Assembly (NCBI GenBank): GCA_964016885.1 | Contig: OZ024744.1 | Location: 44,516,001 to 44,580,000 of the forward strand | Origin: Eledone cirrhosa | Lineage: Eukaryota | Reading direction: 5' to 3' | Length of the DNA stretch: 64,000 nt | Shown: positions 429-62,190 of the stretch, in pieces | Layout of the letters: each line of letters begins with the position of its first letter | How positions within the stretch are numbered: position 1 is the first letter of the stretch | Translations under genes and position numbers: made by a program | Notes under the pieces: generated by a model | Databases searched by the model: none | What the model saw: only the letters and a program-made list of their open reading frames with translations | What the model was told of the DNA's origin: nothing

Positions 429-477
429 TGTTTCTACTTTAGGAACAAGGCCAGAAATTACCCAGTGCATTACTGGT
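429..477 (-). mobile_element. 5'-truncated SINE (3' tail only)
   Basis: Matches the 3' end of the SINE at 752-931. Flanked by AAATAAT at 422-428 and 478-484. The empty site is visible in the right arm near 4052-4068. Confidence 0.85.
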
Positions 478-751: not shown

Positions 752-931
752 TGTTTCTACTTTAGGCACAAGGCCAGCAAATACCCAGTACATTACTGGT
801 ACTTTATTTTATTGACCCCGTAAGGATGAAAGGCAAAGTTAACCTCGGCGGGATTTGAACTCAGACTGTAAAGGGACGTAACTATGCTAGAAAGCATGGC
901 GTCCAACCCTGTACCGATACTGCCAATTCAC
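752..931 (-). mobile_element. tRNA-derived SINE resembling cephalopod SINEs
   Basis: Minus strand has A-box TGGCAGTATCGG, B-box GAGTTCAAATCCC, core CTTTGCCTTTCATCCTTACGGGGTCAATAAA and tail GGCCTTGTGCCTAAAGTAGAAACAATT. Three further copies in the window. Confidence 0.88.

Positions 932-4243: not shown

Positions 4244-4250
<7 letters not shown>
1608..4250 (+). mobile_element. Penelope-like retroelement 1, 5'-truncated and degenerate
   Basis: RT, linker and GIY-YIG remnants followed by a ~900 bp 3' UTR/pseudo-LTR whose inverted copy lies upstream. Confidence 0.92.
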
Positions 4251-5520: not shown

Positions 5521-7806
<2,286 letters not shown>

Positions 7807-10159: not shown

Positions 10160-10253
<94 letters not shown>

Positions 10254-31948: not shown

Positions 31949-32905
31949 TGACTCGAAGAGCCATCAACTTATTGTACGAATATTTCATGTTATAGATTTT
32001 ATCATCCAATGTTCAAATTCAATATTGTTATAATAAAATAAACATTGTAACAACACAATCCTGGTATTATTCTTTGCATTGAAGCCATCATACCAACAAT
32101 TCCATATATTCGTTACAACAGGTGACCCCGTGAAACGGACACACAACCTTCTGTTTATTCACTACAAACGATGTCCCTAGTGCACGACGATTCATCTACG
32201 GCAGAAATGGCAGTCCAGGCGGCGTTTACATTAAGGGTGCACGATCCAACACTGTGGTTCGCGCACATCGAAGCGCAGTTCGCATCGAACCGGATCGTTA
32301 GCGAGGCATCTCGTCTAACACATGTCATTGGTTCGATGTCTCCGGAGATTATGAATGAGGTTCGAGACCTCATTTTAGCACCACCCAGCTCTGTGTCATA
32401 TGACACATTTAAAACGATGTTAATTACGAGGACGTCGGAGTCGCAGCAGAAGCGCTTGCACCAGCTCCTCATATCGGAGGAATTAGGAGATAAAAAGCCG
32501 TCGCAACTCCTACGGCGAATGAAGCAGCTCCTGGTAGAACATAAACTCCCAGATGAAATTTTCAAGCAACTCTTCCTCCAGCATTTGCTTTCTGCCACAC
32601 AAGTTGTTCTGGCGTCCACCAGGGTGTCCACCTCCATTGAAGAACTCGCTGAGCTGGAAGATAAAATCATGGAGGTACAACATCGGCACTCGACTTTAGC
32701 GAATGTGACGCCAGCCGTGCCTTCCACCAATCCTTTCCTTCAGCCCTCCAATGCCACAGAGATGCCCGATCTACACCAGTTACTGGCACAGCAAGCAACA
32801 CGCCTTGACGCAACAAATTCAGGCCTTGTCACTGAGTAACCCTGCCATGCCTCGGTCTAACAGTCGAACTCGAAGGTTCGGTGGTCGCTCTAGAAGTCCG
32901 AATGG
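31949..32905 (+). mobile_element. gag: CsRn1-type Gypsy 5' fragment (LTR end, PBS, partial gag)
   Basis: AATAAA-containing LTR remnant, then GGTGACCCCG (Trp-like PBS, 32121-32130). ORF 32171-32839 has DPTLWFAHIEAQF and ELGDKKPSQLLRRM. Confidence 0.82.
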
Positions 32906-35130: not shown

Positions 35131-37712
35131 TGTATGCTTTAGCTTCAGCCTGTGCCCATGGGAAGGCGGGTATTCTGTATTACTATAACACCAGAGATCC
35201 TGGTCCTGTGTCATCACATTTGAGAGGTGCAATTGGGCAAGGTCAGCTTTTATCACCTCATGCCAAGTCTTCCTGGGTCTTTCCACCCAATGGCTTCCAT
35301 CAATTTTGAGCGCTCTGCAACTTTTTATACAGCTGTCATCCTTAATACGCGTCACATGTCCATACCAACGTAATGTCCTCTCCTGCACACATCATCTGAT
35401 TCCTCTTATGCCTAGTTTCTTTTTCAGTTCGTTTATGCTTTGTCGTTCACGTATATTACAATTACATATTCATCAGAGCATGTGAGTTTCATTTCTTTCC
35501 AACGTATGCAAGTCTTCTGCACACAGCGCTCCGGTCTCACTACCATGCAATATTGTTGTTCCTATGCACGCATCATACTGGTTGCCTTTCATTTTGAGGA
35601 AAAAAATATTGTAGCTAGCTGTGGTAGTACTGCTAGCTACAACATCCTTTCTATCCTGATCTTACTCTGGCTACTATAGTTTCAGAACACCCACCTCCGC
35701 TAGTAATTTGGTCACACCGGTAGGAGAAGCTGTCTACTGTTTCTACCGAACTACCCCAAAATTTGATAGCGTTTATTTCCTGTGGTCATTTGCTGCTTAC
35801 TGCCCCGATGCAGCGGTTACATGTGAGGCCTATATTCTTAGCTAAACTTATTGATATCCCACTACATCTCTTGTGTAGTCATAGTTTGCATTTGGGCAGA
35901 GTATGGAATTTCTACCGACTTTTTTCCTACAAATTGAGCAAGGCCATTTCCCCGGGGGACCAGGGATCCCTTTTCTCTTCTACTTACTAGCACGTTAGTT
36001 TTTGTCAGGTTGACTTTAAGACCTCTTGTTTCTAGGCCCTGCTTCCATGTTTGGAATTTCTTTTCTATTTCCACCAAAGACTCCACTATGTGTAATATCA
36101 TCCGCGTACAGGAGTTCCCACGGGCAGCCAGTCTGAAACTCCTCTGTTATAGCCTGTAGTACGATTATAAACAGGAGAGGGCTAAAAACAAAGCCCTGAT
36201 GGACGCCAAGTTGTGCGCTAAATGCCTCGCTATAGTCATTGCTAATCCTAACTTTGCTGGCTGCTCCTCTATCCATGACTTGTACAGCCTTTACAAGCCA
36301 CTCATCTACTCCTAGTTTTCTAAAAGCCCACCAAATTATGGCACGGGGTACCCTATCAAAAGCTTTTCCAAATCGACAAAATGCCAAGTAGCGCGGCTTC
36401 CTTTTAGCTTGGTACTTTTCCTGCAGCTGCTTTACCAATAAGAGGCGATCTGTGGTGCTTTTGCCGGATACAAATCCGAACGGCATCTCATCTAGACTTA
36501 CCCGGTCCCTAATCAGCTGTTCTATAACTCTTTCTGTTACTTTCATGACCTGGTCCATCAACTTTATACCTCTATAGTTTCCTCTATCTAGTGCATCTCC
36601 TTTACCCTTGTAGCAGTTGACAATGATGCTACTGTGCTAATCATTTGGTATGACACTATCTAGTATTACCTGGTTAACAATACGTGTGGTTATGGTGTGT
36701 CCTACCGACTAAGATACTTTCAGCACCTCGGTAACTATGCCTGATAGCCCGGCTGCTTTCCCAGTCTTCATATCCTTAATTGCCTTACTTACTACATTGT
36801 TGCTGACTTCTATTGCTTGGCCCTCTGTAGGATCCACTTGGGGTAGGGTCTTTAACTCCAATGTATTCTCCTCATTTAGTAATCTTTCATAATGGCTCTT
36901 GCATGCAGCTTTATTATCGGCGTCTGTGACGACAAGTGAACCTTTACCATCCCGGCTCACGAATGACATCACAATTTTACCTAACTCACTGTCTCACAAT
37001 CCTGAACACTTCCTGTTTTTGGTCATCACGCTGAAAAACATGCTTGTTTCTTTTGTCCCCTGCTTCCCTCCTTGCTAAGTATACTTGTTGCCCAGCTTCC
37101 CTCCTGGTCTCTATGTAGTGTACTCTGCTTCTCCCGTTCTTCCATTTTTCCTATGCCAGTCTCTTGGCTTTAATTGACACATATACCTTATTGTTCCACC
37201 CCCAGTCACCCTCCTCTTAGTAGCCCTGCTCCATTCAAATATCTCGTCTGTCGCCTTCAGGAACTCCCAGTGCTCCCCTATATTGAATGCTTCTATCTGT
37301 TGTTCTTTACTGTCATAAGAGTCAAGCAAAGTATCTCTCAATCTGTAGCTGCATGAGGAATCTTTCTGCTTCCATATCCTTCTCCTTTAGGCTGCTTTCT
37401 GTTTCCAAGTTCGTCTAGCTTTGACAATGAGGTCGCTGACTACTAGGTTATGTTGGGTGGTACATTCCTCACCAGGGTAGGATTTCGTGTTTACCACCGA
37501 TACTCTATCTCGCCTTCTGATAAAGATAAAATCTATCTGACTAGAATGCTCCCTTGATCTACAGGTGATCAGGTGGTTGTCGGGTTTTTTGAAGCGTGTG
37601 TTTCATATGAATATTTCATTGGCGTTGCAGAATTCTAGGAGCCTGAAACCTTCCTGATGCCTTTTGCCAAATCTGTGGCCTCCAGGGACTCTGTAGAAGC
37701 CATCAATGTATA
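35131..37712 (-). mobile_element. RTE-clade LINE, 5'-truncated and degenerate
   Basis: APE tail GGHRFGKRHQEGFRLLEFC, MKTGKAAGLSG, NYRGIKL, KAFDRVPR..WWAFRKLGVDEWLV, GVHQGFVFSPLLF, LLYADD, LRWYGHV..RPRKTW. Confidence 0.92.
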
Positions 37713-39090: not shown

Positions 39091-39101
39091 TATATATATA
39101 T

Positions 39102-39451
39102 AAAAGATGAATATAAAATGAAAGTGCTTTTATAAAAGAATTTATTAGGTATTGACATATGTTTCTGTAACAGACGGAATACCTATGTATCGCTGCTTGC
39201 GTAATCATATAATGTTAGCAAGTATTCGATAGCAAATGCATAATCAGTTGTCACTTCTTCAGAGATATTGGATAAATTTATCCAATATCTCTGAAGAAGT
39301 GACAACTGATTATACATTTGCTATCGAATACTTGCTAACATTATATGATTACGCAAGCAGCGATACATAGGTATTCCGTCTGTAACAGAAACATATGTCA
39401 ATACCTAATAAATTCCTTTATAAAAGCACTTTCATTTTATATTCATCTTTT
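39102..39451. repeat. Spacer-less 350 bp palindrome containing two hammerhead-like motifs
   Basis: Centre at 39276/39277 (GGATAAA|TTTATCC), 175 bp arms, 3 mismatches by eye. Right arm has CTGAAGA at 39291 and GAAA-CATATG-TC-AATA at 39388-39403. Confidence 0.93.
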
Positions 39452-39556
39452 CTATATTTTCTCCGGAATATAATTTATACTCGTTGAGCAAACCTACACC
39501 TACGCTGTTCATCTCTAACGTGACGATATATTATCACTACATTATTAATAACCTGA

Positions 39557-40095: not shown

Positions 40096-40538
40096 GTATT
40101 GAAAATTAGAATGGTGCTCTGAAATAGCGATGTATACATGAAATTATATATAGTATGTTTGGCAATATACTGTATGCTTAATTAAAAACATTTTGAAAAC
40201 TATGTTACTTCTTTTTTCAACAAACAAAGGGAGATAAACTGTATATACTATATATACATTCATGTATACATCGCTATTTCAGAGCCCCATTCTAATTTTC
40301 AATTTTTGCTGGACCGGCAATCGCTCTGTATAATCAGTTCCTGATTACTACTGGAATTCTATAAGAATCCAACATCTATAATTTTCAACAAGCATCGGCG
40401 AGTGTTAAGCTCTGATGATTACGAACAGTATGAAACAGATCTGTCAGCTTATCTCCCTTTGTTTGTTGAAAAAATAAGTGACATAGTCACTACTTTAAAA
40501 TAATAGCGCAAGGTCTTCAAAACGTTTTTAATTAAACA
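40096..40538 (+). mobile_element. Retrozyme-like repeat (318 bp family), copy 1
   Basis: Homologous to 47357-48094. An inverted partial unit at 40096-40241 precedes a forward unit at 40242-40538. Confidence 0.82.
40407..40450 (+). ncRNA. Type I hammerhead ribozyme with intact core
   Basis: AAGCT-CTGATGA-T TAC GAACA GTA T-GAAA-CAGATCTG-TC-AGCTT. Perfect stem I, palindromic stem III, GUC cleavage triplet. Confidence 0.88.
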
Positions 40539-41563: not shown

Positions 41564-44500
41564 TTATATTACTGCATAGCTTACGGGGCCAATGCACCTT
41601 TCGCCCAGAACGGGTCGTAGTTCTGTGTGTTGATGGGGGGGGGGAGAAATAGGCCTATGTGGCAAAGAAAAAGAAGGGGGCATTTGAGTTTCAAGTGTCA
41701 TTGTGTCATTGTCCAGGTTTGCTCGTTTGAGACGATCAACGGAAACCGTTTCCCTGGAACCCTGAATGTCCAGTGTGAAATGTTTGTCTGTGCGAACAAG
41801 CACACGATAGGGTCCAGAGTACGGCCGTTGAAGAGGGGGTCTCACGGCGTCGTCTCTAACGAACACATGTGTCTACAAGGCAATATCCCTTGGGACGGCA
41901 GTTTTTACAGTCTGCTTCCTAGTGCCCATCGGTGGTAGATCCTTGAAATAAGAGTGAAGCCGGGACACGTAGGAAGCGGGGTCCTGCGAAGTCAGGTCAA
42001 AAGGAGCCAGCATTTTCCCCGGTAACGCCAGAGGAGTACTATAAACTAATTCGGCAGAGGAGAACCCAAGGTCCACCTTTACCGTCGACCGAATACCCAA
42101 CAACACAATAGGTAGGTACTCGCTCCAACGTGAAGAGTCCATGGAAGCCCTTAAGGAGGCTTTGAGCTGCCTGTGGAATCTTTCCACCATTCCGTTTGAG
42201 GCTGGGTGGTAAGCCGTGGTTCTTATTCGAGTAGCCCCCAGGATTTGGGTTAATTCTCGGAAGAGGTTAGACTCAAATTGACGACCACGATCCGTTGTGA
42301 TGGTGGTTGGTACACCGAAACGAGCGATCCATGAAGATACGAGAGTACGGGCTGTGGTTTCAGCGGTGATATCTGTTATAGGGATGGCTTCAGGCCAACG
42401 CGAAAAACGGTCAACAATCGTCAAAAGATACGAAAAGCCACGACTAACCGGCCACGGGCCGACGATGTCCACATGAATGTGACGAAATCTTGCATCGGGG
42501 CAGGTGAAGGTTCCGAGAGGAGCCTTAACATGTCTATGAACTTTCGCTTGTTGGCAAGCAACACAGGAACGACACCAAGCAGCAATGTCACGTCTCATCT
42601 CAGGCCAGAAAAATCTGGCTGTTATGAGTTTTACTGAGGCTGATACTCCTGGGTGAGAAATGCCATGTAAAGCGAGAAACGCAGTTCGTCGATGTTCCAC
42701 TGGGACTAGAGGTCGTGGTGAGTCCAACGAAACATCACACAGTATTTGTCCGTCAGCAGTTGAGATCGGAATGTATTTCAGTTTGCACTGTACAAACTCT
42801 GGCGATGTAACATCCAACGATTCGAGAGTGGGTTGGGCAGCTGCCATTCGATGTAAACCTATCTCCTCGGAAGACGAAATCGATGCGATCGGCAGGCGAG
42901 ACAGCGCATCGGCCGCTGTATTCAAAGAACCCGGAATATGTTGAATGTCGTTCGTGAACTGTGAGATGAAGTCCAGATGTCTCGTCTCTCTGGGCGAATA
43001 TTTGTCTGCTTTAGTTCGAAGAGCAAACGTCAAAGGTTTATGATCAGTGAAAATGGTGAATGTTCTACCTTCAAGTACATGAGCAAAATGTTTCACTGAT
43101 AAATAAATTGCTAATAGCTCCCTTCCAAAGGTGCTATAGCGAGTTTCGGCAGGCTTTAACTTCCTCGAAAAGAACTCGAGTGGTTGCTGTACCCCATCAT
43201 ACTTCTGCTGTAAGACTGCGCCCACGGCGCTATCCGAAGCATCAACACATAGCGATAGCTCGGCGTTGGGTACTGGGTGGGCGAGCAAAGACGCGTTCGC
43301 TAACGCCTTTTTCACTTTTTTAAAATCCTCAAGCTGCGTTTTATTTAAGGAAATGTCCATATTCTTAAGCCGGCAACCCTTAAAAATGTCTGTCAACGAG
43401 AACAGGAAGTTGGAACAACCAGGTACGAATCGCCTATAAAAATGTACAAGGCCCAGGAATTGACGCAATTGTCGCAGTGAACTTGGCGGAGGCAAATCCG
43501 ATACTGCCTTAACCTTCTCAGGAAGAGGTCGAATACCATCGGCGTCAATCAGATGGCCTAAAAATGTTAGTGAAGTCGAGCCGAAAACACACTTGGAAGC
43601 ATTAATACGGACATTATATCTCTGTAAACGACGAAATAGGGTATCCAGATGCTTTGAATGCTGCTCAGGGGGAGAACTAGAAATCAGTACATCATTGATA
43701 TACGTGTACACAAAATCCAGGCCCCGAGTAATATCATCCATAAATCGTTGGAAGGTACTTGCAGCATTTCTAAGGCCGAAAGGCATAGTGAGGAACTCGA
43801 ATGCTCCAAAAGGAGTGGCAATAGCAGTCTTCGGAATATCCTCCTTGTTAACCGGAATTTGATTATAAGCACGAATCAAATCAAGCTTAGAAAAGATTCT
43901 GCAACCTTGCAATGACGATGCAAAATCCTGCAAATGCGGGATTGGATAACGGTCAGGCACAGTAATCGCGTTTAAGCGTCGCTAGTCACCCGTCGGTCTC
44001 CAATCACCAGAAGATTTAAGTACCATATGTAGAGGCAATGCCCAAGGACTTGTGGAACGCCGAATTATTCCCAATTCCAGCATGTGGTCGAATTCAGACC
44101 GTGCAGCTTTCAACTTCTCTGTAGATAATCTTCGAGGACGTGAGAAAACAGGTGGATCTGTAGTGGATATAAAGTGTTCAATCGCATGATCCCGGCTAGT
44201 TATTCGTAACTTTCCCTGCGTCAACTGAGGGAATGAATGTAACAGGCTTTGATACTGGTTGCCCACTTCAGCCAAGTAAAAGGAAGGGTTGACAGTGGCG
44301 ACGTCCGGCTCTGAACCCTCGAAAGAAAGACCTGTTTCAGCATAAAAAAGGCGTTGTCTGCGAATGTCCACCAACAAGGAAAAATGGTGGAGAAAATCCG
44401 CTCCCAAAATGGCGTATGGCAAGTCGGCGATAGTAAACTTCCACTTCAAATCACGCCGCAAATTTTTTAACCGAAGAGGAAGCGAAATTTGCCCGTACGT

Positions 44501-44680
44501 TCGAATGGCCGTGTGGTTGACTGCTCGTAGATTTATATTTGTTTCAGCTGGGCTTTTTTTGAGATAACTGACTGGCCAAATACTCAGCGACGCGCCAGTA
44601 TCGACAATTTTTTTGACCGCAGGTCGTATACGAAAAGATGGCGGTTCGGTCGGTTTTCCCAGAGTTCACTAGCCGCCCCT
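41564..44680 (-). pseudogene. pol: Pol (protease, RT, RNase H, integrase)
   Basis: VDTGAS; WRPTGD*RRLN; [13 protein letters not shown]; MPFGLRNA; YIND in place of YIDD; VDASD..RELLAIY..FTDHKPL; HPG..CVAC..HVDIVGP..TDRGRQF..VERFHR; GPY. In-frame TAG at 43982 and 41873. Confidence 0.95.
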
Positions 44681-45202
44681 AGTGCCTCAGCTTTGCGTTT
44701 CCCGATCTCTTGTAATTACAGGGCGTGCGACAACGTTGTGCCCTACTGCCGAAGTTAGCATGATACCAACACAACGAAGAATTATTGTTGTCTGCGTCGT
44801 AGTGCTGGCGATGAATAGAGGACGGCGGCGAACGATACCTCAAACGTTGAGAAGGCTCTCTGTGATGTACAGTCAAATCTTCTACCTTTTTGGTGAGAGC
44901 TTCAATCAACTCCAACAGTTTGCTGTCGGCCACAGAAGAACTGCGTGGGGGGACGCAAGCTGAAGCCACATAAAGATTATGCTGATTGCTGTTCGAGTCC
45001 ACCTCAAGTATTTTATCCGCGGACGCGGCAAGTTGCTCTAACGACTCCTTCTCTAAACTATTAACCAAAATCCTTTGCGCACTTGGCGGTGGACCTTCAG
45101 CTTATGCTGTTCTTTTGTCTTGGTTAATTCAAAGAAACATTCCAGCTGCGCAAACCACAACTTGATGTCGCCTGCGAAGGACGGCAAATGATGTTGACTC
45201 AT
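44679..45202 (-). pseudogene. gag: Gag, internally deleted, with CHCC motif
   Basis: MSQHHLPSFAGDIKLWFAQLECFF ... LEQLAASADKI ... CWYHANFGSRAQRCRTPC (C-X2-H-X9-C-X3-C). Confidence 0.88.
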
Positions 45203-46086
45203 GGTGCCACGTATTTGATGAATTTTTGGTGTTGGTTAATATTTAGCCAGGTGTTGCTGCTGATTGCTGGTAATTGGTGGTAGCCGTTTTGAAATACTGC
45301 AAATTTTTTTTCTTTAAAAAAAATATTCCAAAGAAAATTTTAATAATAAAAAAAATCATTTTCTATGAAAATTAATGGTAAGAAAATCCAAGATGGCTGA
45401 TTTAAAAATGTGTCCGTGATGAAGAAGCCGTCATGTGGCACGATGCAGCCAATCCGATGGCTGGGATTGGAGAAGACAAGCTGAACGCGGGAAAACAAAA
45501 TATCTGAGTCTCCATTTGTAATTTCCACAAATGTTGAAAGCAAAATTCTATATCCAGAGAAATCCTTTTTTTTTTTTTTATTATTTTTTTTTTGTGTTGT
45601 ATTTTTGTGTTTGTCTGTATGCGTGCTTCAACAAATGGAATATTATGAATTTTATGGACTTACGCTAAGTGATTCGAACATTCCAAATGTTAAGCCATTC
45701 CACATTGCCGTTAAAACGAATGGCGAATTCAAATAGGCTGCGTTTTCATTCTTTATCGTCAGGGTCGCCAATAAAGGAAAGGGATGTTTCTCTTTGTTGA
45801 ATAAATAAATGAACAATCAAATCTAACAATCATTTTATTAAATGCGATAAATTAGTAAATTTCCTACAACGTCAATATTTTGAGGAGCGAATCTTTCCAC
45901 GTCTGTTCATGTCCGCGGTCCAAAGAGAGTGAGTGAACCTGCGTCTGTGTCGGGATGTATTTTTGCCTCCGCTCTCTGAAGTGTTGTTAAGGGGAGGCAA
46001 CTGCTAGTTGCCAAGCGACCATCTCAGCCACTACAATCCTGTTAAGGGTGAAAGCACCGATTCTTTGTTTAAACTGTAATCTGTTA

Positions 46087-46136
<50 letters not shown>

Positions 46137-46282
46137 TATATTCGTGTACAGATATTTTTGCATACACAAAAACAAAATATAAACAAACGTATTTATTTCA
46201 CGAAAGCACAGACGGCTTATCGTCATTGTTACTGCCGATATGCCACCCAAAAAGTCCTAGCCTGGCCGCAAGATCAGAGAGA

Positions 46283-46469
46283 CTAAGCTTCGCGATTACC
46301 ATCAACAAAGCTCAGGGTCAAACCCTAAAAGTGGCTGGTCTTCATCTGGGAAAAACAAGATCCATTGTATGTAGGATGCTCTAGAGTGAGCTCGCCAAAC
46401 AATCTCTTCATCTTTGCTCCCGAGGTCCGAACAAAAAATATTGTATACTCTGAGGCTCTAACAATGTAA
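46283..46469 (+). pseudogene. Helitron PIF1-like helicase C-terminus
   Basis: LSFAITINKAQGQTLKVAGLHL and LYVGCSRVSSPNNLFIFAP..TKNIVYSEAL. Confidence 0.88.
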
Positions 46470-46747
46470 TTTATGGTTGTACAAATTATTGTAAAGTTTG
46501 TTAAAAAAATGTGTTCTCTGTTCAACCTTTATTGTTGTAACTATCAATTTTCTTTAACGTACTGGCTGAGAAAAGAAACCTACAATGAAAGAACATCTTA
46601 AAGTTTACCCAAGCCAAATGTTGTATTTATTAAAATTTCTACCTGCAGATTCTTAGCAAGCTTACTGGCGCTTTAGTATGGTATTCAATTCTCATATCGT
46701 TTTTGATTGATATGGTGCATGTATCGCAGCTATTTATGTTTTAAACA

Positions 46748-47090
46748 TTAGATAACGATTGGGTCATCTTGATCATGTCCCTTAGGGTTATAGCTGATCC
46801 TATGGCTGTGGGACGCCTTAGGTAGCGCTGAGTTATAGTAATCAGCGTTACTATTGAAGATCTCTTTATTAGCCGACAAGTTAGAGATCCTGTCAGAGAC
46901 ACTCTTAACTACGGCCGTAACTATAGATCTAGGGTGATTGGACCCAGCGTTGATATACACCAGCTTCTCATTGGGTTTATGATATGGGTGGTGTAGCTTG
47001 GTGTTGAGGTTGAGGGTGGTGTCCAGGAAATTCACTATTTTTCTATTGGGTTCCATCTCTACCTTAAGTCCTACCTTGCTAAAGGTAGGA
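46748..47090 (-). mobile_element. Penelope RT C-terminal fragment
   Basis: IVNFLDTTLNL..PYHKPN..SNHP..RISNLSANKEIFN..YYNSAL. Confidence 0.85.
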
Positions 47091-47315
47091 CATATATATA
47101 TGTGTGTGTGTGTATATTTTTTCTCGCGAGTCAGTTCTTTCGTTGCTACAGTCCCCGCGGCTAAATTACCGGTCGCTATCTTCCATTTCCAAAGCTCTTT
47201 AAACGTAATGTTATTACTCTAAGGTTTTATACCTTATCGAGTGCTTGGCTGTACTTTCTGATTGCATTTGTTGGCTTAGCTGCGGCTCGAGCTTCGATTA
47301 TGCTGTACTTCCATT

Positions 47316-47356
<41 letters not shown>

Positions 47357-47357
<1 letters not shown>

Positions 47358-48094
47358 TATTAGAATTGGTGCTCTGAAATAGCAATATATATATGATTGT
47401 ATATATAGTGTATTTTGCAATACACTGTATGGTTAATTAAAAGCATTTTGAAGACCATACGTTATTGTTTTAAAATAGTGACAATGTCACTTATTTAAAT
47501 TTTCATCAAACAGGGGAGATAAACTGACAGACCTCTGTTTTGTACTTGTTGGTACTTATCAAAGTTCACTACCCCTCCTGTTTGCCGAAAATTATGTGTG
47601 TTGGATTCTTATAGAATTCCAGTAATAATCAATAATTGATTATACAGAGCAGTCGCCGGTCCCCTGTTTGCTGAAAATTTAAATAAGTGACATTGTCACT
47701 ATTTTAAAACAATAGCATCTGGTCTTCAAAATGCTTTTAATTAAGTATACAGTGTATTGCAAAATACACTATATATACATTCATATATATATCGCTATTT
47801 CAGAGCACCAATTCTAATTTTCAATTTCTACTGGACCGGCGACCGCTCTGTATAATCAGTTCCTGATTATTACTGGAATTCTATAAGAATCCAACACACA
47901 TAATTTTCGGTAAACAGGAGGGGTAGTGAACATTGATAAGTACCAAAAAGTACGAAACAGAGCTCTGTCAGTTTATCACCACTGTTTGCTGAAAATTTAA
48001 AGAAGTGACATTGTCACTATTTTAAAACAATAACGTATGGTCTTCAAAATGCTTTTTATGAAGCATACAGTGTATTGCAAAATACACTATATAT
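47357..48094 (+). mobile_element. Retrozyme-like repeat, copy 2: inverted monomer plus ~1.35 tandem monomers
   Basis: 47664-47775 recurs at 47982-48093 (period 318 bp). 47357-47662 is an inverted, differently permuted monomer. Decayed hammerheads at 47929-47974 (+) and 47521-47566 (-). Confidence 0.85.
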
Positions 48095-48095
48095 A

Positions 48096-48228
<133 letters not shown>

Positions 48229-48300
48229 TATTCAAACAGAACTCAAAACGTGAGTTCTAGTTTTGAATATTATGTCACTATCTGTAAAAGAATTTTTGTA

Positions 48301-48361
48301 TTTTATCTGATGAGTGCGTACCAAAATGTTGGTACCCTTAAAAAATATATATAATAAAATA
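48301..48361 (+). ncRNA. Decayed type I hammerhead motif
   Basis: TTTTAT-CTGATGA-..GTACCAA AATG TTGGTAC..-AAAA (for GAAA)-TATATA-TA-ATAAAA. Same stem I/III type as 5396-5473. Confidence 0.55.
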
Positions 48362-49712
48362 AATATGGGTTTATAAAGATAGTTTCCATTTATTAATATC
48401 ATTTATATATATATACATACATAAAGAACTAGGAAACAATTACATACATTTTTCAAAAACTTAGGTATTACTTAGATATTACCTTAGATATTACCTTAGA
48501 TAACTTAGGTATTAACTTAGGTATTACCTTAGATAAAAACACTAAAAACGTTAACTTTCTTGATGCTACCCTTTGCCTGGACTCTAAAATATATACACCA
48601 TTTCATAAACCAAACGAAAAACTACTTTATGTGGATATCAACTCTAACCACCCTAACTCCATATTAAACTCAATTACTAAAGGAATATCAAATAGAATTT
48701 CTACTCTATCATATAATGAAACCATATTTAACAGTGATTCCCAATACTATAATGAGGCCTTAGCTAAATCAGGACATAAAAATGAAATTAAATTTTTACC
48801 CATAAAATCACCTAGTTACAACATTATTTCTCACAATATGGCCATGAAGAAAAATAATAAAAGTACTAACCACTATAACTATAGTACGAAGGGTAATATC
48901 AAATTTAACTCGCACCAAAATAAACACCCCAATAATAATATAAACAGAAATATAAACAAACCTCAAATAACATTACAAAAAACAAAAATAGTAGAACTAA
49001 TACATTTTTCAATCCCCCCTTTCAATCTAAACGTCTCTACCAACTTGCCTAAGGCTTTCTTCACAATCTTAGAAAAAAACTTCCCAGTCGGCCACAAATA
49101 CCATAATCTTATCAATAAAAATACCATTAAAATCTCTTATTCTACCACACCTAACATCGCGTACTATATATACTATATAGCTAGTAGTAATAAAAGGAAG
49201 ATTAATAATTATTTTCAACTAATTAAATCATAATACCAGAGCAATTCTAGTAGCAACAATAGTAATAGCACTAATGAAATTAATAACAAGGAGAATGATA
49301 ATCATCATTACCCTAATACTACCCCTAACAACCATGCATCTACACACCCTATTAACCAGCAAGTAAACAACCAGAATAACTGTAACTGTAGAACAAATAG
49401 AACGTGCCCCTTAGGTAAAAATTACTTAATCAAAGACATAAGTTACTCATGCACAGTCAATACAAACATCTCTTCAAAAACATATATCGGTTCTACTTCG
49501 ATCTGCTTTAAGACGAGATATAACTCGCATCTCACTTTCAAAAATCGCAATCTAGCCAACTCCACTTCTTTATCTAACTACATACACTATCTGAAAACTA
49601 AAAATAGACCATACACACTTCAATGGGTAGTAATAGATTAGGCCGCATCGTATAAACCCCGAATAAATTATAGCTTACTTATATTTTATTCAGTAATGGG
49701 TAGATAATAATA

Positions 49713-49895
49713 TAATTGTTTTTACTTTTGGCACAAGGCCAGCAATTACCCGGTTCATTTCTGGTACTTTATTTTATCGACCCGGTAAGGATGAAAAGCA
49801 AAGTTAACCTCGACGGGATTTGAACTCAGACCGTAAAGCGACGTAACTATGCTGGAAAGCATGGCGTCCGACCCTCTACCGATACTGCCAATTCA
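49713..49895 (-). mobile_element. tRNA-derived SINE
   Basis: Full-length homologue of 752-931. Confidence 0.88.
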
Positions 49896-49968
49896 ATGAG
49901 ACCTTTAATGTATTATAGGAGAATAGATTGTATTTAAAATTAAATATATAAATAAATAGCATTATATA

Positions 49969-50154
49969 GGATTGGCAGTATCGGTAGAGGGTCGGACGCC
50001 ATGCTTTGCAGAAAAGAGTTACGGCCCTTTATGATCTGAGTTCAAAACCCGCCGGAGTTAACTTTGCCTTTCATAGTTACGGGGTCGATAAAATAAAGTA
50101 CCAGTAATACACTGGAATAATTGCCGGCCTTGTGCCAAAACTAGAAATAATTAT
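49969..50154 (+). mobile_element. tRNA-derived SINE
   Basis: TGGCAGTATCGG A-box, GAGTTCAAAACCC B-box, same core and tail as 752-931. Confidence 0.88.
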
Positions 50155-50927
50155 ATAAAAGGGATTCACTTAAAACATAATATATTGTATATTAGCACAA
50201 GGAATCTAACTAATTGAAGCTGTAAACAACTATACATTTTTTCTATTATATACAAATTAATCACTAATTATCTCCCCTTTCACATTAGCTCCCCTTAATA
50301 TAGATCTGTAATCCACTTCCTGAAATTAAACCGTTAGACAAATCACACCAGAACAACTCAACTCTGGATAAGATTGTAATAGGACCAATATACAAACATA
50401 GTTGTAACTACTAATAAACATTATTAAAATATAACCAATGTAATGGAAAGGAAAACCTTATTATTAATACCCACAACACATGCACATTTGAACATTACCG
50501 GAACAATTATCACACTACATCCACTATAAACTTCATAGAAACTACTTTCAATACACAAATATCTCTGTCTGCTTAATATGCTTTTATACCTGTATTGTAT
50601 TATGTGATACCTTTGCCACACTGTAATATATATGCCTAGTACAATTGCTTGTTTCCTACCTAGCTATTCTGTACACGCCTAACACATTTGCACTCTCTAT
50701 ACGCTTGCATATGTACTGCTAATGTCCTCGTTTTGCGAGTAACTTTCTGCCTTAATTCCTATATAATTGTTATATTATTCTTTTGTAATCTTTGTCACAT
50801 CCACTGTTACTGACCTCAACATCTCCACTCTGTAAATATGACACTGTTGATGATAACATTAATATCTATGTATCTTTATGTTTGTTCTGTAGAATAGTAC
50901 GTTAATTATATGTCTAAACTTTGCTAG

Positions 50928-50974
50928 TGCTCCGATGATTCCAAACGAAAGTTTGGAAGAAACGATTGTCAGAA
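50928..50974 (+). ncRNA. Decayed type I hammerhead motif at the PLE 3' end
   Basis: TGCT-CCGATGA-TTCCAAAC GAAA GTTTGGAA-GAAA-CGATTG-TC-AGAA. Perfect 8 bp stem II with a GAAA tetraloop. Confidence 0.72.
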
Positions 50975-51153
50975 ATAAAATGTTTTGAACATAGTTTTGA
51001 TTATTCTGTAATTTATATTCCTGCTCTGTAAAACATCTGATGTATTTACGTTGAACTATTTTTCTTACTGGTAATAAGGTAGTAATGAATTACTGACCTT
51101 ACCTGGTTATAATTATATATAGTGTATATATAAGTATAAATAATATTATTATT

Positions 51154-51230
<77 letters not shown>

Positions 51231-51721
51231 CCAAATTCTAAGTCTCCCCACTTTAGCTTTGCCCTGCCAATACAACAGAACAAATACGAATAAATAAGGA
51301 AAATATGTTTATTCAAAAATATAGACCAGCATTAAATATAGTTTAATATACATTATGTTAACACCATAACATGCTAACCATCCAAACAGACACATACATA
51401 CACACATACACACATATCACTTTCTATATTCTAAAATAAAAACCAGAGCTAAATATACCTTAACATACGTTAATACTCTAACACCTTAACATGCTAACCA
51501 TACCCGCCACACAGACATAACTCCCTCCTCCATTTCTACTAACAGAATCATTTGCAATTGGAACACATGTATACTTATATCTGTGTTCATCTCTCTCATA
51601 TATTCAATTATATATATGTATATCTTTATATATATCCATATATCCATATATATCTTTATATATATACATATATCCATATGCAAATGACCAAGTTAGCTAA
51701 GTTGAAAAAATACTAACTTAA

Positions 51722-52225
51722 AACAATATGGATTGCCTGTCTCGATTTAAAGTAATAAATCAATAAAATTAACAAACATATACCGCGAAACAGCCTTTGA
51801 TAGCCAGACAAACCTAAATATGTTTCGCAAGGATTATTAAGTGAAAGCCACCATTCCTATGCTCATCAGAAGGTATCTATTTTTAGTTTCTAACTCAATC
51901 TATGATATTCTCGTCTCCTTACGTACAGCTAAATTTAGTCTCATAAACCCGGCTGCTATTTTTAGCGGCATCAGTATGAGACGCGCTAGGCGCTGCAACA
52001 TGTGCTTTTATATCGGCAAATCTTTCAGTCTTCTCAGATACTTTGAAGTAAAAATTACGAAATTCTGGATACCTACTGACGAGCACAGGAATGTTGGCTT
52101 TCAATTATTAATTCTTGCGAAACAGATTTAGGTCTCGCTGCGTATCAAAGGCTGCTGCCCGATATAGGTTTGTTATTTTTATTGATTTATTACTCTAAAT
52201 CAGAAATATACAGCATGCTATATTG
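51722..52225. mobile_element. Small element with ~155 bp inverted arms, each carrying a hammerhead motif
   Basis: Plus 52071-52133 reads ACCTA-CTGACGA-GCA..TGC-GAAA-CAGA-TT-TAGGT. The mirror copy at 51812-51874 has CTGATGA. Confidence 0.75.
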
Positions 52226-52232
52226 CCTCCAC

Positions 52233-55200
52233 AATGACACCACACTCTGTTACCTCTACATTAGACACCACCCTATGTTATCTCTGTAATAGAGACCACC
52301 ATATATAAGACACCACCATATGTTAGCTCTATATTAGACCCCAACCTATATTACCTCTATAAGGACATCACCCTATGTTACCACTATAATAGACACCACT
52401 CTATAATACCTCTATACTAGACACCACCCTATGTTACCTCTATACAAGACACCACCCTATATTACCTCAATATTAGACACCTCCCTATGTTACCACTATA
52501 ATAGACACCACCCTATATTACCTCTATATTAGACACCACGCTATATTATCTCTATAATAGACACCATCCTATGTTACCACTATAATAGACCCCAACCTAT
52601 ATTACCTCTATAAGGACATCACCCTATGTTACCACAATAATAGACACCACCCTATAATACCTCTATACTAGACACCACCCTATGTTACATCTATAATAGA
52701 CACCACCCTATCTTACCTCTATAATAGACACCACCCTATATTACCTCTATATTAGACACCACCCTATATTACCTCTATAATAGACACCACCCTCTATTAC
52801 CTCTATATTAGACACCACCCCATAATACTTCTATATTAGACACCACCCTATATTACCTCTATATTAGACACCACCCTATATTACCTCTATATTAGACACC
52901 ACTCTATGTTGCCTCTATATTAAACACCACCCTATGTTACCTCTATAATGACACCACCCTAAGTTACATCTATATTAGACACCACCCTATATTACCTCTA
53001 TAATAGACACCGCACTATGTTACCTCTATAATGGCACCACCCTATAATACTTCTATAATAGACACCACCCCATATTGCTTCTATATTAGACACCACCCTA
53101 TATTACCTCTATATTAGACACCACCCTATATTACCTCTATATTAGACACCATCCTATGTTACCTCTATAATAGACACCACCCTATGTTACCTCTATATTG
53201 GAGACCAACCTATATAACCTCTATATTAGACACTACCCTATGTTACCCCTATATTAGACACCACCATATGTTACATCTATAATAGACACCACCCTATATT
53301 ACATCTATATTAGACACCATCCTATGTTACCTCTATAATAAACACCACCCTATGTTACCTATATATTGGAGACCACCCTATATAACCTCTATATTAGACA
53401 CTACCCTATGTTACCTCTATATTAAACAACACCCTGTGTTACCTCTATACTAGACACCACCCTATGTTGCCTGTGTATTAGACGCCACACTTTATTACCT
53501 CTATATTAGACACCACCCTATGTTACCTCTATAATGACACCACACTATGTTACCACTATAATATACACCATCCTATATTACCTCTATAATAGACAAAACC
53601 CTATGTTATCTCGATATTAGATATCACCCTAGGTTACCTCTATATTAGACACCACCCTATCGTAGCTTTATTCTAGACACCACCCTGTGTTACCTCTATA
53701 ATAGACACCACCCTATATTACCTCTATTTTAGACACCACACTATGTTACCTCAGTATTAGATGCCACGCTATATTACATCTATATTAGACACCACACTAT
53801 GTTACCTCTATAATGGACACCACACTATGTTTTTTCTATATTAGAGACCACCCTATGTTACCTCTATATTAGGTACCACCCTCTGTTAACAGTATAATAG
53901 ACACGACCCTATATTACCTCTATAATAGACGCCACCCTATGTCATCTCTATATTAGACACCACATTGAGTTACCTCTATAATGGTCACCGCCCTATGTTA
54001 CCTCTATATTAGACACCACACTATGTTACCACTATAATGACACCAAACTATGTTACCACTATAATATACACCATCCTATATTACCTCTATAATAGACACA
54101 ACCCTATGTTACCTCTATATTAGACATCACCCTATGTTACCTCTATATTAGACACCACCCTATCTTACTTCCCTCTATATTACCTCTGAAATTAGGCACC
54201 ACCCTATGTTACTTCTGTATAAGACGCCACCCTATATTACCTCTATATTAGACACCACCCTATGTTACCTCTATCATGGACACCACCCTATGTTACCTCT
54301 ATATTATACACCACCCTATGTTACCTCTATATTAGACACTATCCTATGTTACCTCTATACTAGACAACACCCTATGTTACCTCTATAATTACACCACACT
54401 ATGTTACCACTATAATATACAAAACCCTATATTACCTCTATATTAGACATCAATCTGTTTTACCTCTATATTAGACAGCACCCTAAGTTACCTCAGCATT
54501 AGACGCCACCCTATATTACCTCTTTATTAGACACCACCCTATGTTACCTCTATAATGGATACCACCCTATGTTACCTCTATATTAGACACCACCCTATGT
54601 TACCTCTGTATTAGACACCACCCTATGTTACCTCTATAATAGGCCTCACCATATGTTACCTCTACAGTAGACACCACCCTATGTTACCTCTATAATGACA
54701 CCACCCTATGTTACCTCTATAATAGACACCACCCTGTTACCTCTATATTATACACCACCTTATGTTACTTCTATAATGACACCGCCCTATATTACCTCTA
54801 TAATAGACACCATCCTATGTTACGTCTATAATGACACGACCCAATACTACCTCTATAATAGACACCAGCCTCTCTTAACTCTATATTAGACACCACCCTA
54901 TATTACCTCTATATTAGACACCACCCTATAATAAATCTATAATAGACACCACCCTATAATACCTCTATATTATACACCACCCTATGTTACCTCTATAATA
55001 TACACCACCCTATGTTACCTCTATAATATACACCACCCTATGTTACCTCTATACTAGACACCACCATGTGGTACCTCTATAATACACACCACCCTATATT
55101 ACTTCTATATTAGACACCACCCTATGTTAGCTCTATAATGACACCACCCTATATTACCTCTAAAATAGATACCACCCAATATACTTCTATATTAGACACC

Positions 55201-58200
55201 ACCCTATGTTACCGCTATATTAGACACCACCCTATGTTACCTCTATAATAGACACCACCCTATGTTACCTCTATATTATACACCATCCTATGTTACCTTT
55301 ATAATAGACACCACCCTCTATTACCTCTACATTAGACACCACCCCATAATACTTCTATATTAGACACCACCCTATATTACCTCTATATTAGACACTACCC
55401 TACGTTACCTCTATATTAGACACCACCATATGTTACATCTATAATAGACACCACCCTATATTACCTCTATATTAGACACCACCCTATAATAAATCTATGA
55501 TAGACACCACCCTATGTTACCTCTATATAAGACACCACCCTATATTACCTCTATATACATAGCACCTTATGTTACCCCTATAATAGACACAACCCTATAT
55601 TACCTCTATAATAGACACCACCCTATATTACCTCTATAATATACACCACCCTATGTTACCTCTATAATATACACCACCCTATGTTACCTCTATACTAGAC
55701 ACCACCATGTGGTACCTCTATAATAAACACCACCCTGTATTACTTCTATATTAGACACCACCCTATGTTAGCTCTATAATGACACCACCCTATATTACCT
55801 CTACAATAGATACCACCCAATATACTTCTATATTAGACACCACCCTATGTTACCGCTATATTAGACACCACCCGATATAACCTCTATATGAGACACTACC
55901 ATATGTTACATCTATAATAGACACCACCCTCTATTACCTCTATATTAGACACCACCCCATAATACTTCTATATTAGACACCACCCTATATTACCTCTATA
56001 TTAGACACCAACCTATGTCTACCTCTATATTAGACACCACCCTATGTTACCTCTATAATAGACACCACCCTATGTTACCTTTATATTGGAGACCACCCTA
56101 TATAACCTCTATATTAGACACTACCCTATGTTACCTCTATATTAGACAGCACCATATGTTACATCTATAATAGACACCACCCTATATTACCTCTATATTA
56201 GACACCACCCTATGTTACCTCTATATTAGACACCACCCTATGTTACCTCTATAATGACACCACACTATGTTACTACTATAATATACACCATCCTATAGTA
56301 CCTCTATAATAGACACAACCCTATGTTACCTCTATATTAAACAACACCCTGTGTTACCTCTATACTAGACACCACCCTATATTGTCTCTGTATTAGACGC
56401 CACCCTTTATTACCTCTATATTAGACACGACCCTATGTTACCTCTATAATGACACCACATTATGTTACCTCTATAATATCCACCATCCTATATTACCTCT
56501 ATAATAGACACAACCCTTTGTTATCTCTATATTAGACATCACCCTATGTTACCTCTATATTAGACATCATCCTATCTTACCTCTGTATTAGACGCCACCC
56601 TATATTACCTCTATATTAGACACCACCCTATCGTAGCTTTATTCTAGACACCACCCTGTGTTACCTCTATAATAGACACCACCCTATGTTACCTCTATAC
56701 TTGACAACACCCTATGTTACCTCTGTATTAGACGCCACCCTATATTACCTCTATTAGACACCACATTATGTTACCTCTATAATGGTCACCACCCTATGTT
56801 ACCTCTATATTAGACACCACCCTATGTTGCCTCTGTATTACCCAGCCCCTATATTAGCTCTATATTAGACACCACCCTATGTTACCTCTATATTAGACAC
56901 CACCCTATGTTACCTCTAAATTAGACACCACCCTATATTACCTCTATACTAGACTTAAGCCTGTGTTACCTCTATAATAGACACCACCCTAAATTACCTC
57001 TATAATAGACACCGCACTATGTTACCTCTATAATGACACCACCCTATATTACCTCTACAATAGACACCACCCGATATACTTCTATATTAGACACCACCCT
57101 ATGTTACCTCTATAATAGACACCACACCATGTTACATCTATATTGGAGACCACCCTATATAACCTCTATATTAAACACTACCCTATGTTACCTCTATATT
57201 AGACACTACCATATGTTACATCTATAATAGACACCTACCTATCTTACCTCTATAATAGACACCACCCTATATTACCTCTATATTAGACACCACCCTATGT
57301 TACCTCTATAATGACACCACCCTATGTTACCTCTATATTAGACACAACCCTATATTACCTCTATATTAGACACCACCCTATGTTACCTCTATAATGACTC
57401 CCCCTTATATTACCTCTATATTAGACACTACCCTATGTTACATCTGTATTATAGGCCACCATTTATTACCTCTATATTAGACACCACGCTATGTCACCTC
57501 TATAATGACACCACACTATGTTACCACTATAATATATACCATCCTATATCACCTCTATAATAGACACAACCCTATGTTACCTCTATATTAGACATCACCC
57601 TATGTTAACTCTACATTAGACACCACCCTATCTTACTTCACCCTATGTTACCTCTGTATTAGACACCACCCTTGTTACCTCTATATTAGACACCACCCTA
57701 TGATATCTCTATAATATACACCACCCTATGTTACCTCTATATTAGACACCACCCTATCGTAGCTTTATACTAGACACCACCCTGTGTTACCTCTATAATA
57801 GACACCACCCTATGTTACCTCTGTATTAGATGCCACCCTATATTACCTCTATATAAGACACCACCCTATGATACCTCAATAATATACACCACCCTATGTT
57901 ACCTCTATGTTAGACACCACCCTATCGTAGCTTTATACTAGACACCACCCTGTGTTACCTCTATAATAGACACCACCCTATGTTACCTCTATATTAGACA
58001 TCACCCTATGTTACCTCTATATTAGACACCACCCTATCTTACTTCACCCTATATTACCTCTGTATTAGACACCACCCTATAATACCTCTATATTAGACAC
58101 CATCCTGTATTACCTCTATACAAGACACCACCCTATGTTACCACTATAATGGACACCACCCTATGTTACTTCTACAATAGACACCACCCTATTTTACCTA

Positions 58201-61200
58201 TATCAGACACCACCATATGTTACCTCTATCTTTGACACCACCCTATATTACCTCTATATTAGACACCACCCTATATTACCTCTATATAGATACCACCCTA
58301 TGTTACCTCTATAATAGACACGACACTATATTACGTCTATAATATACACCACCCTATGTTACCTCTATACTAGACACCACCCTGTGGTACCTCTATAATA
58401 CACACCACCCTATATTACCTCTATATTATACACCACCCTATGTTGCCTGTATAATAGACAACAACCCTATGTTACCTCTATACTTGACAACACCCTATGT
58501 TACCTCTGTATTAGATGCCACCCTATATTACCTCAGAATTAGACACCACATTATGTTACCTCTATAATGGACACCGCCCTATGTTACCTCTATATTAGAT
58601 AGCACCCTATGTTACCTCTATATTAGACACCACCCTATGTTACCTCTATATTAGACACCACCCTATGTTACCTCTATAATGACACCAGCCTATAATACCT
58701 TTATAATAGACACCACCCTATATTACCTCTATATTAGACACCACTCTATGTTACCTCTATATAAAATACCACCCTATATTACCTCTATAATGACACCACC
58801 CTAAGTTACATCTATATTAGACACCACCCCATATTACCTCTATAATAGGCACCGCACTATGTTACCTCTATAATGACACCACCCTATATTACGTCTATAA
58901 TAGACACAACCCCTTATTACTTCTATATTAGACACCACACTATATTACCTCTATAATAGACACAACCCTATGTTACCTCTATATTAGACATCACCCTCTG
59001 TTACCTCTATATTAGACACCACCCCATCTTACTTCACCCTATATTACCTCTGTATTAGACACCACTCTATATTAACTCTATACTAGACACCACCCTATGT
59101 TACCTCTATATTAGACACCACCCCAGGTTACCTCTATAATAGACCCCACCCTATATTACCTCTATATTAGACCCCAGCCTATGTTACCTCTATTACAGAC
59201 ACCACCCTATGTTACCTCTATAATAGACACCACCGTATGTTACCTCTATATTAGACGCCACCATATGTTACCTCTATAATGACACCACCCTATATTACCT
59301 CTATAATAGACAGTATCCTATGTTACCTCTATATTAGACACCACCCTATGTTACCTCTATACTAGACACCACCCTATGTTACCTATATAAGGACACCACC
59401 CTATGTTAGAACTATAATAGACACCACCCTATAATACCTCTATATTAGACACCACCCTATGTTACCTCTATAATGGACACCACTCTATGTTACTTCTATA
59501 ATAGACAACACCATATGTTACCTCTATATTTGACACCACCCTATATATCACCTCTATATTAGACACCACCCTATTTTACCTCTATATTAGACAGCACCCT
59601 ATATTACCTCTATATGAGTCACCGCATCATTTTACCTCTCTAATGGACACCGCCCTATGTTACCTCTATTATTAGACACCACCCTATGTTGCCTCTGTAT
59701 TAGCCGGCCCCTATATTACCTCTATATTAGACACCACCCAATGTTACCTCTATATTAGACACCACCCTATGTTAACTCTATAATAGACACCACCCTATAT
59801 TACCTCTATAATAGACACCACCCTATGTTAACTCTATAATAGACACAACCCCTTATTACTTCTATATTAGACACCACACTATATTACCTCTATAATAGAC
59901 ACCACCCTATATTACCTCTATTTTGGAGACCACCCTATATAACCTCTATATTAGACACCACCCTATATTTCCTCTATATTAGACACTACCCTATGTTACC
60001 TCTATAATGACATCTCCCTATGTTACCTGTATAATAGACACCACCATATGTTACCTCTATATTTGAGACCACCCTATATAACCTCTATATTAGACACTAC
60101 CCTATGTTACTTCTATATTAAACAACACCCTGTGTTACCTCTATACTAGACACCACCCTATGTTACCTCTGTATTAGACGCCACCTTTTATTACCTCTAT
60201 ATTAGACACCACCCTATGTTACCTCTATAATGACACCACACTATGTTACCACTATAATATACACCATCCTATATTACCTCTATAATAGACACAACCCTAT
60301 GTTACCTCTATATTAGACATCACCCTATGTTACCTCTATATTAGACACCACCCTATGTTACTTCTGTATTAGACACCACCCTATGTTACCTCTATAATGA
60401 CACCACACTATGTTACCTCTATATTAGACAACACTTTATGTTACCTCTATACTAGACACAACCCTACGTTACCTCTATATTACACACCACCCTATAATAC
60501 CTCTATAATATACACCACCCTATGTTACCTCTATATTAGATACCACCCTATCGTAGCTTAATACTAGACACCAGCCTGTGTTACCTCTATAGTAGACACC
60601 ACCCTATGTTACCTCCGTATTAGATGCCACCTTATATTACCGCTATATTAGACACCTCACTATGTTACCTCTATAATGGACACCACCCTATGTTACCTCT
60701 ATATTAGACACCACCCTATATTACCTCTATATTAGACACCACCCTATTTTACCTCTATATTAGATACCACCCTCTGTTAACTCTATAATAGACACGACCC
60801 TATATTAACTCTATAATAGACACCATCCTATATTACCTCTATATTAGACAACACCCTATGTTACCTCTGTATTAGATGCCACCCTATATTACCTCTATAT
60901 TAGACAACACCCTATGATACCTCTATATTAAACACCACCATATGTTACCTCTATATTAGACACAACACTATTTTACCTCTATATTAGACACCACTCTATA
61001 TTACCTCTATATTAGACACCACCCCAGGTTACCTCTATAATAGACACCACCCTATATTACCTCTATAGTAGACCCCACCCTATGTTACCTCTATTACAGA
61101 CACCACCCTATTTTACCTCTATAATAGACACCACCCTATCTTACCTCTATATTAGACACCACCCTCTGTTACCTCTATATTAAACGCCACCCTATGTTAC

Positions 61201-62190
61201 CTCTATAATGACACCACCCTATATTACCTCTATAATAGACAGTATCCTATGTTACCTCTATATTAGACACCACCCTATGTTACCTCTATACTAGACACCA
61301 CCCTGTGTTACCTCTATAAGGACACCACCCTATGTTAGAACTATAATAGACACCACCCTATAATACCTCTATAGTAGATACCACCCTATGTTACCTCTAT
61401 ATTTGACACAACCCTTTATATCACCTCTATATTAGACACCACCCTATATTACCTCTATATTAGACACCACCCTATGTTAACTCTATATGAGACACCACCA
61501 TATGTTACTTCTATATTGGAGACCACCGTATATTACCTCTATAATGACACCACCCTATATTACCTCTATATTAGACACCACCCTATGTTAACACTATAAT
61601 TGATACAACCCTATGTTACCTCTATAATAGACACCACCCACTGTTACCTCTATGCTAGACACCACCCCATGTTGCCTCTATTAGAGACACCACCTTATGT
61701 TACTTCTATACTAGACAGCACTCTATATTACCTCTATAATAGACACCACCCTATGTTACCTCTATATTAGACACCACCCTATGTTACCTCAACAATAGAC
61801 CTCACCTATGTTACTTCTATATTAGACACCACCCTAAGTTACCTCTATATTAGACACCACTCTATATTACCTCTATATTAGACACTACCCTGTGTTACCT
61901 CTATCTTAGATACCACCCCATGTTACCTCTATATTAGACACCACCCTATATTACCTCTATATTAGACACAAACCTATATTACCTCTATAATGACACCACC
62001 CTATGTTACCTCTATACTAGACACCACCCCATGTTACCTCTATAATAGACACCGTTCTATATTACCTCTATAATAGACATGACCCTATGTTACCTCTATA
62101 ATGACACCAGTCTATACTACCTCTATAATAGACACCGCCCTATATTACCTCTATATTGGACACCACCCCATGTTACCTCTATAATAGACA
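52233..62190 (+). repeat. Minisatellite array 2, ~10 kb, 28 bp unit AGACACCACCCTATGTTACCTCTATATT
   Basis: Period 28 (for example 52741 and 52769), about 350 diverged copies. Confidence 0.98.

Follow-up and report, generated by a model that had tools for sequence, protein, structure and literature searches.

A dispersed 318-nt hammerhead repeat in Eledone cirrhosa, probably a retrozyme mobilized by Penelope-like elements

A head-to-head repeat and its hammerheads

Two arms of a 318-nt repeat lie head to head within the 64,000-nt stretch of Eledone cirrhosa DNA analyzed here (the window), which also contains a second, more diverged insertion of the same repeat. The unit was numbered as a circle with position 1 at 47661, and the two 3' ends at which copies of the family stop are called A (short, circle position ~130) and B (long, circle position ~158), ~28 nt apart. 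The features are as follows.

47354 to 47662, minus strand: inverted arm, 309 nt, 5'-truncated at circle position 173
47661 to 48094, plus strand: forward arm, 1.4 units (~450 nt), 5'-truncated at circle position 1
47791 to 47818, plus strand: the 28-nt "tail" that separates end A from end B, here as an internal copy
47905 to 47994, plus strand: type I hammerhead of the forward arm, predicted cut after 47969
47502 to 47591, minus strand: hammerhead of the inverted arm, U3:A8 core at 47562 to 47556
40098 to 40535, no single strand: second, more diverged insertion, C3:G8 core at 40412 to 40418

The head-to-tail period of 318 bp described in a first-pass annotation was recovered by comparing 47661-47792 with 47979-48110 (92% identity, 10 differences in 132 positions), and the unit is, as stated there, non-coding (318 nt, GC content of 0.33, longest ATG frame of 28 aa). 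The inverted arm spans circle positions 173 round to ~160 and terminates at the long end B (~47359), inside a (TA)n run at 47318-47354, and the forward arm terminates at the short end A, merging into (TA)n at 48088-48225. The locus therefore pairs B on the inverted arm with A on the forward arm, and the arms meet with a 2-nt overlap. The annotation had also described an inverted monomer starting at a different point; the inversion is real, with its start at circle position 173, but the difference in start is ordinary 5' truncation. In contigs from public runs, the sequence past 47818 gives way to (AT)n. Because the forward part comprises 1.4 units rather than two full units, it holds a single hammerhead, and with one sense hammerhead per direction the locus itself is unable to release a monomer by double cleavage.

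The claim of a second, diverged locus with the same inverted-then-forward layout holds at 40098-40535. This insertion is 82% identical to the first, with an inverted arm (40098-40215) that has end B, a forward arm (40243-40535) that stops short of end A, and a canonical core at 40412. At least the part of the window from 43106 to 52805 is present a second time, inverted and 97 to 99% identical, on the same contig at a distance of ~0.74 Mb (L002 and L146).

Several unrelated features share the window. A second hammerhead repeat without relation to the first (51570-52201) has a canonical core and a long helix II and forms a head-to-head pair; its copies in the genome wrap with a ~497-nt period and seemingly have two ends, with a fragment of a Penelope-like element (PLE) nearby in 1 of 18 loci. 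An LTR-retrotransposon-like pol on the minus strand (41873-44665) encodes protease, reverse transcriptase (RT), RNase H, and integrase in two frames with a stop between them. Long minisatellite arrays with periods of 31 and 28 nt and strong strand skew occupy 8222-24604 and 52302-62190, and a palindrome of ~360 nt (98%) lies at 39096-39457. The intervals 31270-31968, 32126-32839, 36016-36636, 6742-7506, and 46781-47086 contain additional fragments of RT, a frame with DUF7041, and a pair of small PLE fragments.

One type I hammerhead per unit, as first proposed, is upheld by both folding and covariation, but its core is not CUGAnGA; at 47933 it reads UUGAUAA (U3:A8). The forward-arm hammerhead has an extended helix I, a U3:A8 core (47933-47939), helix II (47940-47953), GAAA (47954-47957), and a palindromic helix III (47957-47968). 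Both hammerheads at the locus are damaged, the forward one at 47932, where the first helix I pair is broken, and the inverted one at 47541, where G12 is replaced by A, a change that likely renders it inactive. The hammerhead region folds far better than shuffled sequence (z scores of -4.3 and -4.0, 0 of 200 shuffles), and an Rfam search returned 0 matches at the gathering score.

Among 101 hammerheads taken from loci chosen via another part of the unit (a few loci being represented twice), 86 had the compensated and otherwise rarer U3:A8 core, 6 had C3:G8, and 9 were mismatched or gapped, so that a Watson-Crick 3:8 pair was kept in 92 of 101. Since U3:A8 predominates in this sample, UUGAUAA at 47933 is not a product of decay. 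Pattern searches of the genome found 384 U3:A8 and 251 C3:G8 matches and none with reversed controls; in the C3:G8 subfamily position 7 is free, with all four bases among the matches listed. This suggests that most members of a family like this one would escape searches that demand tandem arrays or the CUGAnGA core. For covariation, the window copy was aligned with 54 of 58 candidate segments, the four with deletions or junctions being excluded. In this alignment 94% of cells were paired and 15 of 29 pairs had changes on both sides, a level reached by 0 of 500 shuffles, whereas slid controls were only 33 to 47% paired; because relatedness within subfamilies inflates such counts, they should be read as several compensated states and not as dozens of events. 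Helix III is palindromic in several alternative versions across the family, which suits dimeric cleavage, and its four pairs may also allow cleavage of a monomer.

Fixed 3' ends and paired arms across the genome

A 39-nt anchor from close to the 3' end had 2,166 exact matches in the 3.0-Gb genome, and the unit thus has at least 2,166 dispersed copies. In an independent sample, 21 of 52 anchor-covering units matched the anchor exactly, a rate that implies, as a rough figure, a genome total of 5,400 copies. The first 100 anchor matches, all on contig C1, represent 78 distinct loci, and the 160 segments aligned from these loci had 3' ends at A (72), at B (67), or elsewhere (21), placing 139 of 160 at fixed sites. 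A hammerhead-anchored sample of 31 loci shows the identical two ends, and in two public runs, with 42 to 50 contigs each, sequence exits from the unit into (AT)n at B. The ends lie in TA runs in 61 of 70 cases for B and in 50 of 72 for A.

The 5' ends, in contrast, are scattered round the circle. Because 3' ends are fixed and 5' ends truncated, the element is not permuted, and the description "circularly permuted" in the first-pass annotation has to be given up. Fixed termini, which it had listed as evidence against its own reading, were found by half: the 3' ends are fixed and the 5' ends variable.

Multi-unit copies are in the minority. Two or more hammerheads in tandem occur in 14 of 131 arms and in one 4.6-kb array of ~14 units (L147/L148, G000:C1 ~93.4618-93.4664 Mb), which has its 3' end at A and, as in the arms, a truncated 5' end. 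Only such multi-unit copies, to which the window locus does not belong, could release a monomer. At a further locus (L091, 949-1576) a ribozyme-less deletion unit of 163 nt is repeated 4.7 times, with an alternating variant, and ends at B. This deletion unit narrows the likely cis-element to circle positions 44 to 209; a mobile ribozyme-less subfamily was considered and rejected, as the unit was found at this one locus only.

Head-to-head arm pairs occur at 52 of 77 loci (with the array locus set aside), and 44 of the 48 scorable pairs among them combine one A with one B end. Extending the sample to 126 loci, after removal of 19 duplicate or array identifiers, gave 64 AB, 4 AA, and 3 BB pairs, i.e., AB in 64 of 71 (p of 1e-12 against 50:50) and a one-short-one-long rule broken by 7 of 71. 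The C3:G8 subfamily follows the same rule, with AB in all 7 scorable pairs among 16. The junction gap is 5 nt or less in 39 of 64 AB pairs. Paired arms exceed 318 nt in 35 of 90 cases, the longest being 991 nt.

The template and the mobilizing enzyme

Most arms (94 of 131) extend across the predicted cut site, 14 of them at least twice. Since arms read through the cleavage site, the template was a circle or an uncut multimer, and the earlier proposal of a circular or multimeric template is supported insofar as the template, as the ~14-unit array also indicates, was longer than one unit. Arms stop at the cleavage site 4 times, compared to 2.4 expected; in a wider interval, chosen afterwards, there were 15 stops compared to 8.9 expected (p of 0.04). 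There is thus no wall of arm ends at the cut site, and cut linear monomers were at most a minor template.

Between circle and uncut multimer the evidence is divided. One natural unit folds well as a predicted circle (z of -6.6 against 60 shuffles), and the units repeated within one insertion show equal relatedness to each other, with odd-one-out counts of 99, 116, and 91 (3,743 sites, 37 loci, p of 0.20), as predicted for a monomer circle. If, instead, tandem source loci supplied an uncut linear multimer as the template for PLE-driven insertion, no circle would be needed and the hammerhead would act at another step. The L091 multimer and a single arm at locus L008 in which a C3:G8 and a U3:A8 unit are linked both favor that reading and speak against a pure monomer circle; the 14-unit array could act as a source, and the anole PLE is described as inserting in vitro without hammerhead cleavage, using unprocessed RNA (PMC11167929). 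Rarer variants shared pairwise also lean toward the two terminal units (13 versus 3 and 3, some counted twice). Against a linear multimer stands the equal relatedness of units within an insertion, given that the units of the one known array are 8 to 17% apart, although a homogeneous young array would fit both relatedness results. We put the circle as the main template at even odds, and the linear multimer somewhat below that.

The arms themselves constrain how the inversion arose. Fold-back self-priming of one cDNA, hypothesized for PLEs in PMC3846280, and L1-type twin priming on one linear RNA would both produce inverted arms. A few junctions are near-symmetric, and the short-ended arm is contained in the other in 32 of 64 AB pairs, as these routes would have it. 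In 24 of the 64, however, each arm includes sequence missing from its partner, so that the two derive from a template longer than either and one is not a fold-back copy of the other. Classical twin priming, moreover, does not yield arms that overlap on the same unit, as the arms do here, and fold-back gives no reason to expect a short end paired with a long one; we regard this pair of explanations as unlikely. Rare variants are common to both arms of an insertion in 20 of 230 cases, compared to 2 of 148 in a divergence-matched control (p of 0.003), which points to one RNA or one source for both arms, and to which conversion could contribute.

The repeat reproduces the type of inversion known from PLEs, as the first-pass annotation had suggested. 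From 53,627 candidates, 145 PLE-like genome matches were scored. The genome carries intact PLE frames of 820 to 830 aa with Hydra-clade motifs; for example, the intact 827-aa ORF of one family has the RWR, DKT, CxCX5C, CxxC, and CxH motifs described for the (TA)n-targeting Hydra clade (PMC8557442). The clade was assigned by these motifs, as Pfam and PDB sequence searches gave the PLE ORFs no name. The ends of local Hydra-type PLEs likewise lie in TA runs. In one protein-coding Hydra-clade family, other than that of the 827-aa ORF, all 9 scorable head-to-head pairs are short plus long, with a 133-nt tail; 20 of its 29 loci were extended, with preference for loci showing inverted self-matches.

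PLE fragments were present in 19 of 149 unit loci and joined an arm directly in two. At L024 (1500/1501) a truncated PLE abuts a unit arm head to head with no gap, and at L052 (~1745) a 389-nt arm, joined at a 2-nt microhomology, stands in place of the final stretch of the PLE itself. These chimeras involve different Hydra-type PLE families and fit shared use of an enzyme, and they could also be deletions between neighbors in a shared (TA)n run. Two further candidate links were dropped: shuffles gave no support to a 10-nt word common to the unit and one PLE tail, and at L120, where a PLE end lies ~570 nt upstream of an arm, the intervening sequence is absent from other loci.

PLE sequences are also found in the window itself. 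The PLE already noted at its left end reaches to ~109 (109-4247), and the extra 128 nt weakly resemble the tail of another Hydra family (E of 7.5e-4), so that this PLE, too, looks like one long plus one short end. Directly after the (TA)n run of the 318-nt locus, 48230-49659 comprises a short segment, shared with other loci, whose minimal hammerhead (48308) has decayed, and then a truncated Hydra-type ORF fragment; the interval has no sequence relation to the 318-nt unit.

The same PLE traits (tail, inversion, and (TA)n target) would be expected if the unit were the pseudo-LTR of an autonomous PLE yet to be found and the copies its truncated ends. Truncated PLEs are described as giving pairs of minimal hammerheads on opposite strands (PMC4209133), and the loci read number ~250 of thousands. 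Arms longer than one unit, however, wrap into the unit itself, direct joins to a PLE piece are limited to 2 of 149 unit loci, and, with Hydra-type ORFs as probes, the unit was the end of a PLE in none of the samples of 50, 30, 20, and 30 PLE loci, save the two chimeras. In the loci examined, the unit did not regularly flank an ORF with RT and GIY-YIG domains, and in none was it the pseudo-LTR of a PLE ORF, an arrangement the first-pass annotation had named as contrary to its view. Comparison of the unit with five PLE-type termini gave no convincing similarity, the best match being reached by 8 of 200 shuffles on TA-rich sequence. A pseudo-LTR origin is therefore even less likely than fold-back or twin priming. 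A DNA-level element (foldback, MITE-like, or satellite) with an incidental hammerhead-like motif, which the resemblance of the arms to terminal inverted repeats, the TA targets, and the tandem array might suggest, is very improbable given unequal ends, a variable central junction, graded 5' truncation, and a ribozyme that covaries down to its 3:8 core pair.

On sequence evidence, the best reading is a genuine retrozyme-like family of high copy number whose behavior is that of a non-autonomous PLE, in keeping with the ORF-less hammerhead family first proposed. That this is a PLE-mobilized retrozyme seems very likely; the fuller statement, a non-LTR retrozyme moved in trans by a PLE, probably of the Hydra clade, we hold with a probability of about 0.78. 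Priming from two ends at insertion is favored with less assurance, and the complete scheme, in which a 318-nt circular ribozyme RNA templates a PLE dimer that primes from both break ends at two fixed circle sites, is offered tentatively, at rather less than an even chance.

From what the copies display directly (anatomy, fixed ends, the one-short-one-long rule, target tract, cut-site read-through, and covariation), we infer cleavage, circularization, the enzyme, and its dimer. Multi-unit copies would be transcribed, the hammerhead would cut the transcripts to monomers, and a host ligase may circularize them. A dimer of the PLE protein would then associate with this RNA and make a double-strand break in a (TA)n tract. 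Reverse transcription would be primed by both of the DNA ends so exposed, by each at one of a pair of internal sites separated by 28 nt, and the resulting cDNAs, halted at variable points, would be joined at their truncated ends. Parts of this route have counterparts in PMC11167929, which describes the tail as the stretch between two internal reverse-transcription start sites, a PLE protein that cuts both strands of AT-rich DNA, and a predicted dimer; in that in vitro system, the start sites showed no strand difference.

The family bears on how animal retrozymes are copied into genomes and on how PLE insertion is completed. If the complete scheme with its circle and PLE dimer is right, the one-short-one-long insertions, which number in the thousands, would be the first footprint seen directly in a genome of animal retrozymes using PLE machinery, and the rule would cover autonomous PLEs too. 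The footprint is countable, ties a retrozyme to PLE chemistry, and supplies a 318-nt substrate with mapped start sites for in vitro assay.

Comparison with known systems

What is new is the insertion footprint; retrozymes, tails, inversions, and U3:A8 cores have each been published. Our search found no publication that scores retrozyme ends or a one-short-one-long rule; subscription journals, Repbase, and supplements, which may contain the family, were outside its scope.

Non-LTR retrozymes and their circular RNAs have been described with PLEs as candidate mobilizers (PMC7229834, PMC7761336). The mobilizing enzyme is presented as a hypothesis in PMC7229834 and in a preprint (10.64898/2026.07.22.740005), which for Xenopus describes both co-occurrence and homology of pLTRs, without settling the mechanism. 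Compared to the metazoan elements as these two sources describe them, the repeat falls in the same 170 to 400-nt range, lacks an ORF, has a GC content of 33% (the size and GC criterion being a unit of ~150 to 450 nt with GC below 50%), and shares the type I hammerhead, the stable predicted circle, and co-occurrence with PLEs. It differs in occurring mostly as dispersed head-to-head pairs of 0.3 to 2 units and not as tandem arrays, in its dominant U3:A8 core and two-site fixed 3' ends, and in that no pLTR homology to a PLE was found.

With endonuclease-bearing PLEs, as described for anole Poseidon PAc (PMC11167929), rotifer Penelope (PMC3846280), and the Hydra clade (PMC8557442), the unit shares a tail at one end, an inverted 5'-truncated partner, partial tandems, an AT-rich or (TA)n target, a hammerhead upstream of the two ends, and cut-site read-through. 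That one of a pair of inverted ends bears a tail is itself given as a PLE trait in PMC3846280 and PMC8557442. Unlike these elements, the unit has no ORF, and its hammerhead is canonical, with a 4-bp palindromic helix III, and not minimal; its tail is 28 nt, compared to 133 nt in the local Hydra family measured. The non-autonomous Chlamys PLEs of PMC8557442, such as MRC1, are likewise ORF-less, PLE-moved, and found as head-to-tail copies, but their 3' ends generally resemble those of their own autonomous family, and hammerheads are described there as absent from most Chlamys elements.

The compensated U3:A8 core pair has precedents in variants described as natural and active in vitro (PMC3088659) and in minimal hammerheads of Schistosoma PLEs (PMC4209133). 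Unlike in those accounts, it is here the majority form of a canonical-size retrozyme and stands beside a C3:G8 subfamily.
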